From Eledone cirrhosa (lineage: Eukaryota), in the NCBI GenBank assembly GCA_964016885.1, contig OZ024745.1, forward strand, positions 95,108,001 through 95,172,000: a stretch of DNA of 64,000 bases, read 5' to 3'. Made by a program: the position numbers and the translations under genes. Within the stretch, counting starts at the first letter, position 1, and each line of letters begins with the position of its first letter. Shown one piece after another: positions 40,483 through 55,800 of the stretch. A model generated the notes under the pieces. It did not search any database. It had not been told where the DNA came from and worked only from the letters and a program-made list of their open reading frames with translations.

Positions 40483-40926
40483 AACCAAATAAATATATTT
40501 AAAAGAAAAAAGACTCCAGTTGCATTTTCGATTTCATATTTTTTCCTTATATATATATATATATATATATATATATATATATGTATAAACGAAATTTCAT
40601 TTCTCACTCTTAGTACGGCTGTTACTTAAATATAAGTATGTATACGTACATACATACATGTATACAGACGTACAGTAGTATGTATATATATATTTATATA
40701 TATATATATATATATATATATATATATATATATATATATATATATATATATATATATATAAATATATATATATATATATATACATGCCTACATGTATATA
40801 TATGTACGTATGGATTCACCGAACATTTATTATAATGCTCAGTGTGTTTGTAAACAAACATTCCAAATTAAGCCGTACAGTGTCTAGCAACCATCGTTGC
40901 TCATTTGTTCAACACTAACAAAGGAA

Positions 40927-40966
40927 CGCTGTACTAGTTTCAAGCTTATTAGCTATCGTCAGCAAC
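40927..40966 (-). ncRNA. Minimal hammerhead (family B)
   Basis: gttg-CTGACGA-t-agct-aata-agct-t-GAAA-CTAG-TA-cagc. Confidence 0.82.
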
Positions 40967-41437
40967 CTATACCTTCCTGCCAGATGGTTGAACGTCTGAA
41001 AGTATATACTTTCCTTATGCATATTAACGGCTGAGCAGCCTAATTTGCATATCGAGTGAGTTTATCGGCTGGAGTACCAAAAACGATAAACGGAAAAAAT
41101 GAAACGAAATTTCATTTCTCACTCTTAATACAGCTGTTACTTAAATATATGTATGTATACGTACATACATACATGTATACAGACGTACAGTAGTATGTAT
41201 ATATATACATATATATATATATATATATATATATATATATATATATATATATATATATATATATATATATATATATATATATATATATATATACATGTCC
41301 ACATATATATATATGTATGTATGGATTCACCGAACATTCATTATAATGCTCGGTGTGTTTGTAAACAAACATCCCAAATTAAGCCGTACAGTGTCTAGCA
41401 ACCATCGTTGCTCATTTGTTCAACACTGACAAAGGAA

Positions 41438-41478
41438 CGCTGTACTAGTTTCAAGCTTATTAGCTATCGTCAGCAACG
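41438..41478 (-). ncRNA. Minimal hammerhead (family B)
   Basis: cgttg-CTGACGA-t-agct-aata-agct-t-GAAA-CTAG-TA-cagcg. Confidence 0.85.
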
Positions 41479-41675
41479 TATACCTTCCTGCCAGATGGTT
41501 GAACGTCTGAAAGTATATACTTTCCTTATGCATATTAACGGCTGAGCAGCCTAATTTGCATATCGAGTGAGTTAATCGGCCGGGGTCCCGAAAACGATAA
41601 ACGGAAAAAATGAAACGAAATTTCATTTCTCACTCTGTATACATGTATGTATGTACGTATACATACTTATATATA

Positions 41676-41826
41676 TGTGTGTGTGTGTGTGTGTGTGTGT
41701 GTGTGTGTGTGTGTGTGTGTGTGTGTGTGTGTGTGTGTGTGTGTTGTGTGTGTGTGTGTGTGTGTGTGTGTGTGTGTGTGTGTGTGTGTGTGTGTGTGTG
41801 TGTGTGTGTGTGTGTGTGTGTGTGTC
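41676..41826. repeat. (TG)n microsatellite
   Basis: Direct reading. Confidence 0.95.
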
Positions 41827-51749: not shown

Positions 51750-52168
51750 TTATATATATATATATATATATATATATATATATATATATATATATATATA
51801 TATATATATATATATATATATATATATATATATATACATATATATATATATACATATATATATATACATGTATATACATATATATACATATACATATATA
51901 TATACATATATATACATATACTTATATATACATATATATATACATATATATACATATATATATACATATATATACATATACATATACATATATATATACA
52001 TATATATACATATACTTATATATACATATATATACATATATATATACATATATATACATATATATATATACATATATATACATATATATATACGTATATA
52101 TATATATACATATATATATATATACATATATATATACATATATATATATACATATATATATATACATA
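51750..52168. repeat. Compound (TA)n/(TACATA) microsatellite
   Basis: Direct reading. Confidence 0.95.
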
Positions 52169-52169
52169 C

Positions 52170-53198
52170 GTCGGGGTTAAACTTTTTCCTATATATATAT
52201 ATAGGAAAAAGTTATATATATATATATATATATATATATATATATATATATATATATATATATATAGGAAAAAGTTTAACCCCGACAGCAGAACCCAAGC
52301 CGTTTCGACGTCTATTTCTGGACTGAATTATAATTTTTAGCGTGGTAATAAATAGCCGAACACTTCAAGTGGTAATTCCTTATATGGGAAGATTGTAGTT
52401 GTCAAAAGGATTGGTCAAAGTTTCTGGTAAACACAATTAAATCTTTCATGGCGGTGGGTGGGAGTGGCTTAACTTGCCTGTAGAAAAATGAGGGAGTGGG
52501 TGGAGCCGATCAAGCGTTGAAAGTGAATTCTATACAGCAAATGCTAAGAGTGTGTAGGCTAGGTAGAAAGCAGGTGAAAAAGAAATGTGAGAGTGGGACA
52601 TGATAAAATTAAAAGGTTAATAAATTGAGATTAAAAGAAAAAAATTAAATAGTAAAAAATAATTAAAAATCTCTAGAGACTAAGAGTCTAAAGCAGCTGC
52701 TATATTTTTAGCTGGTATTCCGTTATCGGCCAATGCTATATAGAATATACTGGGGTGGGGTTACTGAGGCTATAAATTCCCGATGGGCAGCCTATTTAAT
52801 TTTTTTATTATTTTTTTATTTTAATCTCAATTTATTAACCATTTATTTTTATAACGTCCCACTCTCACATTTCTTTTTCGCCTGCTTTCTACCTAGCCAT
52901 ATTTCATACACACTCCTTAGAATTTGCTGTATATAATTCACTTGCAACGCTTGACCGGCGCCACCCACTCTCTCATTTTTCTACAGGAAAGTTAAGCCAC
53001 TCCCACCCACCACCATGATAGATTTAATTGTGTTTACAAGAAACTTTGAACAAACATTTTGACAACTATAATCTTCCCATATAAGGAATTAACCCTTGAA
53101 AAGTTCGGCTATTTATTACCACGCTAAAAATTCTAATTAATCCAGACATAGCCGTCGAAACGGCTTGAGCTCTGCCGTCGGGTTAAACATTTTCCTAT
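52170..53198. mobile_element. Foldback element with about 400-bp inverted arms and an HHR-like motif (family K)
   Basis: 52265-52668 is inverted at 52795-53198; extra short inverted end at 52170-52214 within (TA)n. Confidence 0.8.
53091..53171 (+). ncRNA. HHR-like motif with long stem II (mirror copy 52292-52373, minus)
   Basis: aaccc-TTGAAAA-gtt-cggctat..atagccg-tc-GAAA-CGGC-TT-gag; the other arm supplies gggtt for stem I; stem III atypical. Confidence 0.5.
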
Positions 53199-53299
53199 TA
53201 CCCACTCTACTACCCTAAGTTTTGAGTACTCTGGTGTGTTATGGTCCATCTGGTTCCTTGCTACACTTCCTTCGTTATATATATTTATATATATATATA

Positions 53300-55098
53300 T
53301 ATAGAGTATTTACGTATCGAGAGAGAGAAAAAAGGGAGGATAGGTGATACATATAGTTATTTGCCAAGTAGCGTATGCCAAAGGTGCTCAATACTAGTGC
53401 CGGTAGTATTAAATATTCGAAGTGCTAATATTTAGTGGGCTAGAGAGTTAGCAGAGCGTAAGCACGTGGAAAAGTAAGAAATCAGAGAATAGACCGTTAA
53501 AACATGTTTATTTAAAACGGCATCTACGACGGTTCGCCCAAATGGGCTTCTCAAGGGCATAAATAAACAAAAGTGTTCCTTACATTGCTCGGAAAGAGTT
53601 TTTCAGGTTAGGTTCACGTCAAGATTCATTGCTCGCAAAAATAGCGTGTTTTGATTTTGCCGCAGGTCAAGGGAGGTAACTCTGGCCGGTGTTAGGGCAG
53701 TCTTTCCCGGACAAATGTTTTATCCGTTGCAAGATGTGGTTACAACCTTACCATTGTCGATACGCACAGGGTCACGTAATCAACGCTTATTTTGAGACGT
53801 TTGTTTTTTTCCGCACCTGTTTGCCTGGGTGGTTTGAGGCTGGGTCTGGTATGCATGGTTACTTTCCTGGGTGTTATTTTGCAGCGCCTGCCCGCCGGGG
53901 TGTTAAAACTTATTGCAGGGAGATCCGGTACACGGTTTCACTCCTCATCCTTAACCCATCTGAAGAAGGATATATTTAAGCGATGTGTAAAACTTATCGC
54001 TGTTTCAGCTCTGCTGTTGATGAGCTCGTGGGGTGCAGTTATGATGTGGTAGAGCTCCATGGGGCAAATATCGCACTTCCTCTTGAAGTTGTACGGTGCT
54101 GCCCTGCCGACAATATCCCAGTGCGTGGAGAAGCTGATGTTTAAGTCCTTTAATGATGTGATGTAGTCCGCGAGCGAAGTGGAGTGTCTTAATTTCTTAT
54201 TTGTGAAAGAGTGGAGATGTGTTCGAAATCTAATTTAGAACGGGCCGGAATTAGCCCCTATATAAGGTTTAACGCTATTGTGGCTAGTTACAGTGCATCT
54301 ATATATAACCCTATCAGTCAGGCAGTATCCTCTAAGGGGGCAGCGTCCCCTGTCGCGGCAGTTGCAATTTCTGTCGCGGTTCCATCCATTTCCCACGGTA
54401 AGGCTATCATTGTTGCTGCCTACGTTGTTATCTACGCCCCCGCAGCTGTCGTTAGCACCATTACAACCCACAGCGCGCGGGGTGGTACGATTATTATTCC
54501 GCACGTCATGTCCTGCATGTTCCCCAGTCATTTCGCGGTTATGCTGGTTGCGTCTGCGGTGGCCGTTGCCAGCACTATTGGATGCTGCTACGGAGTTGTT
54601 AAGGCCGATATAGTTATTGTCAGGTGTAGATGCGTCTGTGCTAAGGTGCTGTGTCTTGGTGATCTTACTGTGTTTCGTTTTGCCTATGATGTCTGCTAGG
54701 TTAGGAGTAGTAGAGGAGGATATTTTTATATTGTTCCTATTAAGAATTTTTCTATACCTATGGTTGGGCGGGAAGTTCTTCTCTAAGGCTTCGAAGAATA
54801 TCCGGGGTATGTTAGAGGCCACACTCCGAGAGTAGGGGGGTGGAACCATAGGACGTTACGGTGGCGATTACGTGTCCTTGTACGTTTGCTACGGGTGGTT
54901 CCATCTAGGTGACCGTTCTTATGCATGTTAATGCGCTGTAGCCCGTTAGGTGCCACTTTCACTTTATGCTCGGGTGCACTCTTCTTCCTTCTTCCATGTT
55001 TATGTACAGGAAGAGGTTGGTTGGAAGGCGTTGGTAGTAGGCCGTCGCCTTTGTTGATTTTGTAGAAGGGGAATAGTTCGAGTAAGCTACAGTGGTCA
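53300..55098 (-). mobile_element. 5'-truncated Penelope-like element, Naiad-type signature
   Basis: RNVLWFHPPYS..NFPPNH..NRNNIKISSS; CNC..CPLRGYCL..VIY..YIG; beyond the stop at 54235 it continues H..SF..STSLADYI..W.I..KCDIC..LINSRAE. Clade assigned from recalled motifs only. Confidence 0.85.
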
Positions 55099-55800
55099 CT
55101 CATTTGTTCAACGCTGACAAAGGAACGGTGTACTAACTTGAAACTAGTACAGCCTTCCTTTGTCAGTGTTGAACAAATGAGCAACGATGGTTGCTAGACA
55201 CTGTACGGCTTAATTCTGGATGTTTGTTTACAAACACACCGAGCATTATAATAAATGTTCGGTGAATCCATACGTACATATATATATATATATATATATA
55301 TGTGTGTATGTATGTATATATATATATACATACTACTGTACGTCTGTATACATATATGTACGTATACATACATATAGTAACAGCCGTACTAAAAGTGAGA
55401 AATGAAATTTCGTTTCATTTTTTCCGTCTATCGTTTTCGGTGTGCCCGGCCGATTAACTCACTCGATATGCAAATTAGGCTGCTCAGCCGTTAATATGCA
55501 TAAGGAAAGTATATACTTTCAGACGTTTAACCATCTGGCAGGAAGGTATACGTTGCTGACGATATCTAATAAGCTTGAAACTAGTACAGCGTTCCTTTGT
55601 CAGTGTTGAACAAATGAGCAACGATGGTTGCTAGACACTGTACGACTTAATTCGGGATGTTTGTTTACAAACACACCGAGCATTATAATAAATGTTCGGT
55701 GAATCCATACGTACATATATATATGTGTGCATGTATGTATATATATATATACATACTACTGTACGTCTGTATACATATATGTATGTACGTATACATACTT
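55099..55800 (+). mobile_element. Family B array (about 1.4 units) with a short 5' inversion
   Basis: Matches 46041-46550; 55099-55135 is an inverted copy of 55143-55181. Confidence 0.88.
55551..55591 (+). ncRNA. Minimal hammerhead (family B)
   Basis: cgttg-CTGACGA-tatctaataagctt-GAAA-CTAG-TA-cagcg. Confidence 0.78.

Follow-up and report, generated by a model that had tools for sequence, protein, structure and literature searches.

A non-coding hammerhead repeat of Eledone cirrhosa with an snRNA-type promoter layout and Penelope-like insertion ends

Features of the window

The window analysed here is a 64,000-nt stretch of the Eledone cirrhosa genome (assembly GCA_964016885.1, contig OZ024745.1, positions 95,108,001 to 95,172,000 of the forward strand). 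It holds three insertions of a tandem hammerhead repeat, a second hammerhead repeat nested within one of them, and a fragment of a Hydra-clade Penelope-like element (PLE) with its pseudo-LTR (pLTR). Coordinates are collected in Table 1.

Table 1. Features of the window, in positions of the window
Feature	Position	Strand	Remarks
Insertion 1	40586..41675	both	minus arm of ~2.3 units (40586 to ~41637) and short inverted plus piece
Type I hammerhead	40927..40967	-	core start 40962
Type I hammerhead	41438..41478	-	core start 41473; 511 nt from previous hammerhead
Insertion 2	45506..48061	both	minus arm 45506-46040 head-to-head with plus arm starting 46040
Type I hammerhead	45862..45902	-	core start 45897
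Type I hammerhead	46384..46424	+	core start 46389; octamer of this unit mutated to ATACAAAT
Inverted copy of adjacent unit sequence	46546..46589	-	carries rare CCATAAGTAC variant
Second, unrelated hammerhead repeat	46590..47895	+	period 561-569; cores 47066 and 47627; in internal TA tract
Hydra-clade PLE, 5'-truncated	53300..55098	-	RT-thumb end, CxCx5C linker, GIY-YIG; frameshift and stop
pLTR of Hydra-clade fragment	~53300-53930	-	different from hammerhead unit
Insertion 3	55099..55807	both	37-nt inverted piece (55099-55135) and plus arm 55137-55807
Octamer-containing box TATGCAAATTAG	55467..55478	+	like host U6/MRP box (-77 to -79) and U3 box (-74)
TCAGC, +17 from box	55484..55488	+	position of TCAGT/TCAT element in host U1, U2, U4, U5, U12 and U3 promoters
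Palindrome GAAAGTATATACTTTC holding TATA element	55505..55520	+	TATATA at 55510, +43 from box
Predicted transcription start	55540..55541	+	U3 geometry
Type I hammerhead	55551..55591	+	helix I CGTTG/CAGCG, core CTGACGA at 55556, helix II, GAAA, palindromic helix III (ACTAGT)
Predicted cleavage site	55586, after GTA	+	in type I hammerhead

A dispersed family of hammerhead repeats

The five hammerheads reported in a preliminary description of this DNA are all present, with cores of the form CTGACGA..GAAAC-TA-GTA, in copies that are 97% identical by column. Core, helices and GUA triplet of a type I hammerhead occur in every copy, as does the palindrome GAAAGTATATACTTTC that the same description had pointed out. 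Its figures for the repeat, a 511-bp monomer at three loci, do not hold. The 511-nt spacing belongs to a single pair of cores (40962/41473) and arose because the internal TA run of that unit expanded; from 55140 to 55577 the distance is 437 nt, and the median monomer over 40 arrays is 427 nt, which rules out 511 bp, an outlier, as the repeat unit. A 34-mer of the family core has 5,653 exact matches genome-wide, against 0 for the reversed control, giving a family of at least 5,653 hammerhead cores and thousands of loci.

The unit had also been judged to lack coding capacity, and indeed its unique part contains no open reading frame of at least 120 aa. Arrays of more than 30 ORF-less units occur in the genome, some arrays show a 420/422 higher-order alternation, and units within one insertion have 17% of rare variants in common, as against 1.3% between insertions. 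Known non-LTR retrozymes are short, tandem, multi-copy monomers of about 170-400 nt (51-972 in a 2026 preprint), non-coding and without LTRs. The present family, with its 427-nt median, 5,653 cores and no PLE ORF attached in sense within 55 sampled loci and 87 sampled arms, is by these sequence characters a non-LTR retrozyme, non-coding and non-autonomous.

Helix I covaries (U-G in 120, G-U in 17 and A-U in 6 out of 214). Positions 10.1/11.1 are an atypical U/U; the conserved pair here is given as G-C in the available text of PMC4209133. An Rfam scan at gathering thresholds returned no match in the window, and, in windows of 66 nt, the hammerheads do not fold better than shuffled sequence (z from -1.0 to +0.8); a 100-nt stretch folds into a long helix I and helix II. 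In the accessible part of a preprint by Li, Clavereau and Pollet (2026, 10.64898/2026.07.22.740005), eight of nine Xenopus retrozyme dimers showed no cleavage in vitro.

Insertion ends

The arrays had been described as having differing start points, and we examined them for circularly permuted ends. The 5' ends are scattered as claimed; the 3' ends are not, and free permutation is ruled out there, since in the sampled arms they concentrate at two sites in (TA)n, about 57 nt apart. Two windows that make up some 8% of the monomer take in 73 of 86 arm 3' ends, and TA junctions number 3,426 genome-wide at the long site (control 0) and 3,419 at the short site (control 103). Among 87 long-site arms, 43 are accompanied by an inverted partner. 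Of these partners, 38 terminate at the short site, 4 at other positions and none at the long site, and 1 has its end beyond the locus edge; that is, 38 of 42 scorable inverted insertions combine one long with one short end. In the window, the plus piece of insertion 1 stops at the short site (CATACTTATA followed by TATA, at 41662) and its minus arm terminates in TA about 16 nt before the usual long site. The minus arm of insertion 2 stops at the long site (TTTTCCGTTTAT followed by ATA), and its plus arm, interrupted by the nested element, at the short site (48048-48061), which in (TA)n is also where the plus arm of insertion 3 ends. The preliminary description did not mention this two-site 3' end signature of Penelope.

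Two fixed 3' ends, a one-sided tail and an inverted, 5'-truncated partner thus characterise these insertions, and the available portions of PMC11167929 and PMC8557442 describe two-site initiation with a one-sided tail as exclusive to PLEs. The Hydra family next to insertion 3 also shows two 3' ends in TA. Judged by this sequence signature, the repeat is very probably a retrozyme mobilised by PLE enzymes.

The predicted hammerhead cut site is spanned by 50 of the 87 arms, and 36 are longer than one monomer. Genome-wide, neither the cut site (20 5' ends, versus 46 at a control site, the two patterns being not exactly matched) nor the predicted transcription start (89, scattered across six positions) shows an accumulation of 5' ends. 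About 5 of 87 arms hinted at 5' ends lying at the cut site, which the genome-wide counts did not bear out. A seeming concentration of 5' ends immediately ahead of the core resulted from choosing loci by their core; it was seen neither in loci chosen by their 3' end nor by direct count.

The nested insertion that had been placed at 46550-47930 is the second hammerhead family of Table 1, which has no octamer box. The CCATAAGTAC variant occurs in 2 of 237 copies counted, namely the inverted piece beside the nested element and the neighbouring unit, and this shared rarity makes it likely that, when the nested element inserted, the piece was copied from the target at this locus. The internal (TA)n tract, as it had been called, consists of imperfect purine/pyrimidine sequence, with 6 units as the typical length of the longest TA run and 11 of 173 tracts reaching at least 21 units. 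Nesting does exist, but in only 2 of the 173 internal tracts, and the earlier idea that a carried target repeat promotes it is weak.

Promoter-like boxes

The octamer noted in the preliminary description, ATGCAAAT, is exact in four of the five copies (55468 on the plus strand; 41050, 41561 and 45983 on the minus strand), 88 nt start-to-start upstream of the core; the fifth has ATACAAAT. It is part of a longer box, TATGCAAATKAG, with YCA at +17 and TATA at +43. The box matches upstream elements of the host U6, U6atac, MRP and U3 genes, and the earlier reading, in which a non-coding retrozyme has promoter elements arranged as in snRNA genes, is supported. It fits the host Pol III type-3 box, TATG(C/G)(A/T)AAT(T/G)AG, and on the host U6/MRP matrix it reaches 17.4 bits, matched by 0 of 200 shuffles. 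Its distance to the TATA is the 43 nt of host U3 rather than the 47-49 nt of host U6/MRP and the Pol III type-3 class. The order of elements is likewise that of host U3 (octamer-like box at -74, TCA at -57/-56, TATA at -31/-32), and the U3 promoter is the best match among 21 host promoters, at 29 of 56 identical positions and with the modest significance of 3 in 200 shuffles as good. A U1/U2-type match was considered and is not significant (195 of 200 shuffles as good on the U1/U2 matrix). The unit lacks the TTACCTCCCTT box found distally in host snRNA genes, and also a U3-type distal box (about -260 to -285); TTACCTCCCTTG occurs once in the window, within the Hydra pLTR and outside the unit.

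A box 60-90 nt before a hammerhead core is found at 26,424 sites (control 0) and in 8 sequence clusters, and box-core pairs number 384 against 25 when the spacing window is shifted. In seven of the eight clusters, half or more of the members have YCA at +17, which was not a search criterion. The spacing of the box is constant across otherwise dissimilar hammerhead families. Within the family the octamer is conserved no better than neighbouring columns, a comparison that is uninformative because most differences arose after insertion; the fixed spacing of box, YCA and TATA in dissimilar clusters, together with the helix I covariation, implies selection. From this layout we think it likely that the three boxes form a working promoter, and because of host U3 geometry its start would fall where Table 1 places it.

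By analogy with the U3 spacing, we lean towards Pol II rather than Pol III as the polymerase. The alternative is that the same PLE-mobilised element is read from a U6-type Pol III promoter, with full monomers produced by leaky read-through of T6. The box sequence lies nearer to U6/MRP (TATGCAAATKAG) than to U3 (TATGTAAAATAAG), its matrix score falls among those of real genes (13.2-19.6, leave-one-out), one sister hammerhead family has the U6 spacing of 47-49, and in flies the polymerase is chosen by PSE sequence, not spacing (PMC4227766). Apart from the 43-nt spacing, the difficulty for Pol III is that T6 and T4 runs lie inside the monomer ahead of the next unit's promoter, yet the promoter region is covered by most arms, and 36 of 87 are longer than one monomer. 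We regard Pol III transcription as unlikely, if well short of negligible.

A model for transposition

Overall, we favour a model in which Pol II probably transcribes a non-coding retrozyme of ~427 nt from an octamer-YCA-TATA promoter of the unit itself, and the RNA is cut into monomers by hammerheads acting in pairs, circularised and pasted into (TA)n by PLE enzymes. The model builds on what can be read directly in the genome, namely copy number, dispersal, the arms, in tandem or head-to-head, with their two 3' ends, the absence of an attached ORF at the sampled loci, and the boxes with their spacing. Consider a tandem insertion. The box in unit n would initiate a transcript about 15 nt ahead of the hammerhead core, running through unit n+1; two hammerheads would pair via ACUAGU and then cut, and a host ligase would close the monomer. 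A PLE endonuclease would cut (TA)n and the RT would prime on each of the two DNA ends, some 217 and 273 nt past the cut site, where the RNA could give a 3-5 nt TA match. The two cDNAs, often exceeding one monomer, would then join head-to-head.

The template in this scheme is probably the circular RNA. For the Anolis PLE, the accessible text of PMC11167929 reports that the hammerhead is dispensable for in vitro insertion and that the principal template is RNA left unprocessed, so linear multimers also come into consideration here. On that reading the PLE-mobilised element would be copied from uncut linear multimers made by host-gene read-through, the boxes being a relic or a POU-factor site and the hammerhead unneeded. 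The lack of excess octamer conservation within the family and the absence of the box from the second hammerhead family of the window would both fit, and the lack of 5' pile-ups is also compatible with early RT drop-off on long RNAs. Against it stand the fixed spacing of box, YCA and TATA in clusters that show no blastn similarity elsewhere, and the covariation of helix I between subfamilies. We consider copying from linear read-through multimers doubtful, and the self-transcribed circle remains our preferred reading.

Relation to neighbouring Penelope-like elements

The Hydra-clade fragment, which Pfam did not recognise, is joined head-to-head to insertion 3 at 55099, and a Hydra-clade ORF abuts a unit at one other sampled locus (L287), also head-to-head; a further candidate for such a junction (L286) proved to be a plain neighbour. 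These junctions, the pLTR tail signature of the unit's ends and the derivation of vertebrate retrozymes from pLTRs, reported in the available part of the preprint 10.64898/2026.07.22.740005, could suggest that the unit is the pseudo-LTR of an autonomous PLE such as this one and the arrays its 5'-truncated copies. However, the chimeric junctions are weak evidence, because insertion beside a PLE followed by deletion looks identical, and neither is in sense. In 19 other copies of this Hydra family (L032-L050) and 6 longer ones, the ORF is flanked by a different pLTR and the RT continues where the window copy meets the unit, which led us to reject the unit as the pLTR of the adjacent element. Arrays of more than 30 units without an ORF point the same way. 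That copies might always be attached to one PLE ORF was the case named earlier as fatal to a retrozyme; it was looked for in the sampled loci and not found, with no PLE ORF contiguous upstream in sense in 55 loci or 87 arms (about 150 of thousands of loci, sampled with eight probes from outside Penelope/Poseidon and Naiad). A pLTR origin of the arrays is accordingly improbable.

The Hydra clade may nonetheless supply the partner of the retrozyme, a possibility we would put at somewhat below even. At least three PLE types in the genome end in TA, and a search by 3' homology found no autonomous partner in 38 PLE 3' regions, a minority of PLE families.

Spread as a satellite at the DNA level, by unequal crossing-over or rolling-circle DNA with no RNA step, is suggested by the long arrays and their 420/422 alternation and is very improbable given strand-specific fixed 3' ends, random 5' ends, short-with-long pairing and TA targeting: it is largely refuted for the dispersed copies and may have a role in the growth of the longest arrays.

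Significance

Tentatively, this genome could harbour a radiation of self-transcribing circular-RNA retroposons, in which at least four multi-copy hammerhead lineages took over a core promoter of the host's snRNA type, the geometry being that of U3/Pol II in some (the ~427-nt family) and of U6/Pol III in one. Each circle would bring the promoter for its next copy and be written into (TA)n from both break ends by Penelope enzymes travelling round it. If so, an internal snRNA-type promoter would belong to retrozymes in general and not be peculiar to the newt. In the literature as available, the transcription of animal retrozymes and the enzymes that move them are proposed rather than demonstrated, and the ~427-nt family lends itself to exact tests: it predicts where transcription starts to within a few bases, and it points to three promoter boxes, two sites of RT priming, a target repeat and candidate helpers. 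The comparison also defines host U6/MRP, U3 and U1/U2 promoter classes, of use in small-RNA expression constructs.

Comparison with known systems

The promoter of newt satellite 2 reportedly combines an octamer with a PSE. The accessible text of PMC2220036, citing Coats et al. (1994), describes satellite 2 as a tandem hammerhead repeat whose internal promoter, of snRNA type, is reported to drive transcription by Pol II. The present family shares this organisation, with a promoter predicted from sequence, and differs in that its octamer is proximal (about -74) and accompanied by a TATA, as in host U3/U6 genes; the likeness drawn here is one of layout. Our search of mainly open literature, supplements aside, found no retrozyme promoter outside newt and schistosome and no account of the present family; the supplements of PMC7229834, PMC8557442 and the preprint 10.64898/2026.07.22.740005 may list such families.

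The metazoan non-LTR retrozymes, as far as the available parts of PMC7229834 (Cervera and de la Pena 2020) and the preprint describe them, are likewise tandemly arranged, non-coding monomers, each with a single type I hammerhead, present in thousands of dispersed copies alongside PLEs; the mussel units, at 350-390 bp, are slightly shorter than the 427 nt found here. Those parts propose PLE mobilisation, or argue for it from homology to pLTRs, and contain no analyses of promoters or insertion ends; here the genome shows 3' ends at two sites and a promoter layout matched to the host's. Non-autonomous Chlamys elements such as MRC1 (PMC8557442, in its accessible portion) are also ORF-less PLE passengers with multicopy head-to-tail insertions, but their 3' end resembles that of an autonomous partner, a resemblance found here in none of the 38 regions searched.

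Close parallels in insertion structure are the PLE pseudo-LTRs, which in the available text of PMC11167929, PMC8557442 and PMC4209133 show two internal sites where RT starts, a tail at one of their ends, an inverted 5'-truncated partner and a palindromic helix III, with (TA)n targeting in the Hydra clade. The present units carry no ORF and have a longer tail, of about 57 nt against 30-40, and, where the Anolis PLE is reported to start without target homology (PMC11167929, same portion), both of their ends have short TA microhomology.

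Hammerhead units and family size

The five hammerheads lie where the preliminary description placed them (cores at 40962, 41473 and 45897 on the minus strand, 46389 and 55556 on the plus strand), and each runs from CTGACGA through a 4-bp helix II and GAAA to a 2-bp helix III, which the palindrome ACTAGT closes, and then GTA. At gathering thresholds Rfam returns no match in the window, and 66-nt hammerhead windows fold no better than shuffles; a 100-nt stretch folds at -29.9 kcal/mol with helix II and a long helix I, both of which also form when the monomer is folded as a circle. 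Helix I shows compensatory variation between subfamilies (U-G 120, G-U 17, A-U 6; n = 214 motifs). Activity is not assured, because helix II is closed by U/U, the conserved pair being G-C in the relevant passages of PMC4209133.

An exact search for the 34-nt core gives 5,653 occurrences in this 3.0-Gb genome (reversed control, 0); some copies are dispersed and others stand in arrays that exceed 30 units. The median monomer is 427 nt (first spacing, 40 arrays), and the 511-bp monomer first proposed is an outlier reflecting TA expansion. In the family at large the internal (TA)n tract is an imperfect purine/pyrimidine stretch, in which 6 units is the usual length of the longest TA run. In one array (L119), 420- and 422-nt units alternate as a higher-order repeat, a pattern suggesting that the array was amplified later at the DNA level or copied from a dimeric template.

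Features of the window
Feature	Position	Strand	Remarks
Unit, insertion 1	40586-41675		one canonical short end, one atypical end
Unit, insertion 2	45506-48061		complete two-site pattern
Unit, insertion 3	55099-55807		one canonical short end, one atypical end
Second hammerhead retrozyme-like family	46590-47895	plus	period 561-569, long helix II, palindromic AACTAATTAGTT helix III; 3' end in TA
Hydra-clade Penelope-like element (PLE), ORF remains	53300-55098	minus	CxCx5C linker
5'-truncated PLE	4300-5275	minus	C-terminal GIY-YIG-like region, 3' end in (TA)n; hammerhead core CTGACGA...GAAA at 4543
PLE remains, presumably Neptune clade	38510-39724; 60825-61493	minus; plus	CxxC zinc-finger linker, Pfam GIY-YIG matches
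Inverted pair, another TA-inserted repeat	52290-52640; 52800-53190		GCCGTTTCGACGGC / GCCGTCGAAACGGC hairpins
Broken non-LTR retrotransposon RT/endonuclease remains	49500-51500; 16625-19934; 29900-33300	minus; minus;	weak RVT_1 match
Broken element, presumably L1/Tx1-like	12913-16184	plus	endonuclease and RT frames
193-bp SINE-like repeats, two in tandem	42307-42695; 48285-48474
Fragment, presumably resembling a Helitron helicase region	43843-44412	minus	no Pfam match

Two fixed 3' ends

Fifty-five loci were chosen by the core alone (40 fetched, together with the 15 left of 30 returned loci once overlaps were dropped; every one within the first 52 Mb of contig C1). Of the 86 arms, or strand-oriented runs of units, at these loci, 73 have 3' ends within two windows, one about 217 nt and the other about 273 nt past the predicted cut, and (TA)n comes next. 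Genome-wide, searches with patterns of unequal length find 3,426 TA junctions at the long site (control 0) and 3,419 at the short site (control 103). Ninety loci were chosen by the long end, about eleven of them shared with the core-chosen set; with one duplicate dropped and two loci lacking a scorable arm (L251 and L252 appear duplicated, both retained), they gave 87 arms. An inverted partner is absent from 44 of these and present in 43, and the partners end at the short site in 38 cases, elsewhere in 4, beyond the edge in 1 and at the long site in none. A one-ended tail between two RT start sites is described, in portions of two accounts, as common to PLEs and unique to them (PMC11167929; PMC8557442).

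The check suggested for these copies, for circularly permuted ends, shows scattered 5' ends and 3' ends that are fixed at two sites. Both 3' ends show a 3-5 nt match through TA-like letters, which would be a clearer role for such letters than nested insertion into the internal tract, the role initially suggested. Nesting is real in insertion 2, where the second hammerhead repeat (relatives at L016, L039 and L040) interrupts the internal TA tract and is accompanied by a copy of the target flank folded back on it; foreign insertions occupy only 2 of 173 internal tracts.

The probable RNA template

Of the 87 arms, 50 span the cut site and 36 are longer than one monomer. When 5' ends are counted directly, beyond these arms, they do not pile up at the cut site (20, against 46 for a control position) or at the predicted transcription start (89 spread evenly across six positions). 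Median divergence is 0.041 within an arm (59 loci), 0.045 between opposite arms (58 loci) and 0.076 between insertions, and units share 17% of rare variants within an insertion vs 1.3% between insertions; a single RNA therefore likely templates both arms. That RNA might be an uncut multimer from which RT drops off early, and an Anolis PLE took unprocessed RNA in vitro in experiments described in part of PMC11167929. Most simply, a circular template would account for both arms.

Neighbouring Penelope-like elements

The ORF remains beside insertion 3 belong to the Hydra clade as defined in part of PMC8557442, with DKT, CxxC and CxH in longer copies. Nineteen other and 6 longer copies of this family have their own pseudo-LTR (pLTR), which bears a variant hammerhead and ends 3' at two sites in TA. 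These copies run on into RT at the point where the window copy meets the unit; the family's own pLTR and this RT continuation lead us to reject the unit as its solo pLTR. Nor is the unit always attached to a PLE ORF, the refuting case originally envisaged: PLE matches lie near 21 of the 55 core-chosen loci, none contiguous upstream in sense, and among 38 PLE 3' regions homology to the unit is confined to separate nested copies.

A second head-to-head junction, at L287 with a different Hydra family, lends weak support to a Hydra PLE as candidate helper. We do not assign the helper to one PLE type, because Neptune-type and another GIY-YIG PLE type likewise end in TA in this genome; the truncated element at 4300-5275 is an alternative candidate. 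The Hydra pLTR holds TTACCTCCCTTG (53679-53668, minus), and the pLTR's variant hammerhead at 53556 (CCTTGAGA...GAAAC GTAC GTA in sister copies) follows about 120 nt later. In host U1, U2, U6 and other snRNA genes TTACCTCCCTTG is the distal box, at about -260; in the pLTR it is possibly a captured snRNA enhancer.

Promoter-like boxes

The octamer ATGCAAAT reported upstream of the core stands 88 nt before it in four of five copies and reads ATACAAAT in the 46389 copy; in an unbiased set of 83 copies most have it unchanged, and it is no better conserved than neighbouring columns. Host snRNA promoters fall into three classes: Pol III type 3 (octamer box -78, TATA -30), U3 (octamer-like -74, TCAT -57, TATA -31) and U1/U2/U4/U5/U12 (AATTA -90, TCAGT -57, TATA-like -32); most of them also have a distal box, between about -260 and -285 (L154-L156, L199, L205, L333-L340, L127-L147, L310-L332). 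TATG(C/G)(A/T)AAT(T/G)AG at -77 to -79 with TATA at -30 is found at 4/18 U6 loci shown (three distinct promoters), 1/6 U6atac and 1/1 MRP, and at none of 18 U1, U2, U4, U5 and U12 promoters shown, which have TCAGT-like at about -57 and TATA-like at about -32. Of 8 U3 promoters fetched, four were compared, and every one of these has TATGTAAAATA(A/G)G at -74/-73, followed by TCAT at -57/-56 and then GTATATA at -32/-31. The remaining U6/U6atac loci shown have no box at that position, and many look like retrocopies; those at L200, L201, L206 and L207 are directly preceded by (TA)n or (TG)n, which suggests that host snRNAs, too, are copied by TA-targeting enzymes.

The unit carries TATGCAAATTAG, TCAGC at +17 and TATATA at +43. 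Its box scores 17.4 bits on a five-gene Pol III matrix (real genes 13.2-19.6 bits, leave-one-out; 0/200 shuffles as good), and the unit is not significant on a U1/U2 matrix (195/200 shuffles as good). The box-to-TATA spacing of 43 is that of host U3, U6/MRP having 47-49, and the best ungapped match among 21 host promoters is U3, at a modest 29/56 (3/200 shuffles). Metazoan U3 is transcribed by Pol II; if Pol II were also the polymerase here, read-through of the T6 run inside the monomer would be explained. In flies, according to PMC4227766, the corresponding spacing differs by 4 bp between snRNA promoters of Pol II and those of Pol III, though it is the PSE sequence that picks the polymerase. 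Transcription is predicted to start at 55540-55541, the 5' strand of helix I.

We regard comparison across hammerhead families as stronger evidence for the boxes than within-family conservation. The box, 60-90 nt and a hammerhead core occur in that order at 26,424 sites (control 0); without the family's commonest form, 384 remain vs 25 at shifted spacing. Fifty-one box-core loci form 8 clusters that blastn connects nowhere but in the box. In 7 of the 8, at least half the members have YCA at +17, an element outside the search pattern; TATA lies at +41 to +48 in most, and one cluster has U6 spacing. A diverged, mostly non-tandem hammerhead family (L235, L345-L353) combines the octamer box with the 47-49 spacing of U6 and is a candidate Pol III retrozyme. 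On these sequence comparisons the promoter-like box is no quirk of one family; it is common, and not universal, because the nested hammerhead family lacks the octamer box.

Place among known systems

In the main texts covered by our literature search, we found neither these families nor a conserved retrozyme promoter described. Newt satellite 2 reportedly has a Pol II promoter of the snRNA type (as cited in PMC2220036). The closest likeness is to non-LTR retrozymes as characterised in parts of PMC7229834 and the preprint 10.64898/2026.07.22.740005: the unit agrees with them in every feature that could be checked on sequence, and we consider it a putative member of that group.
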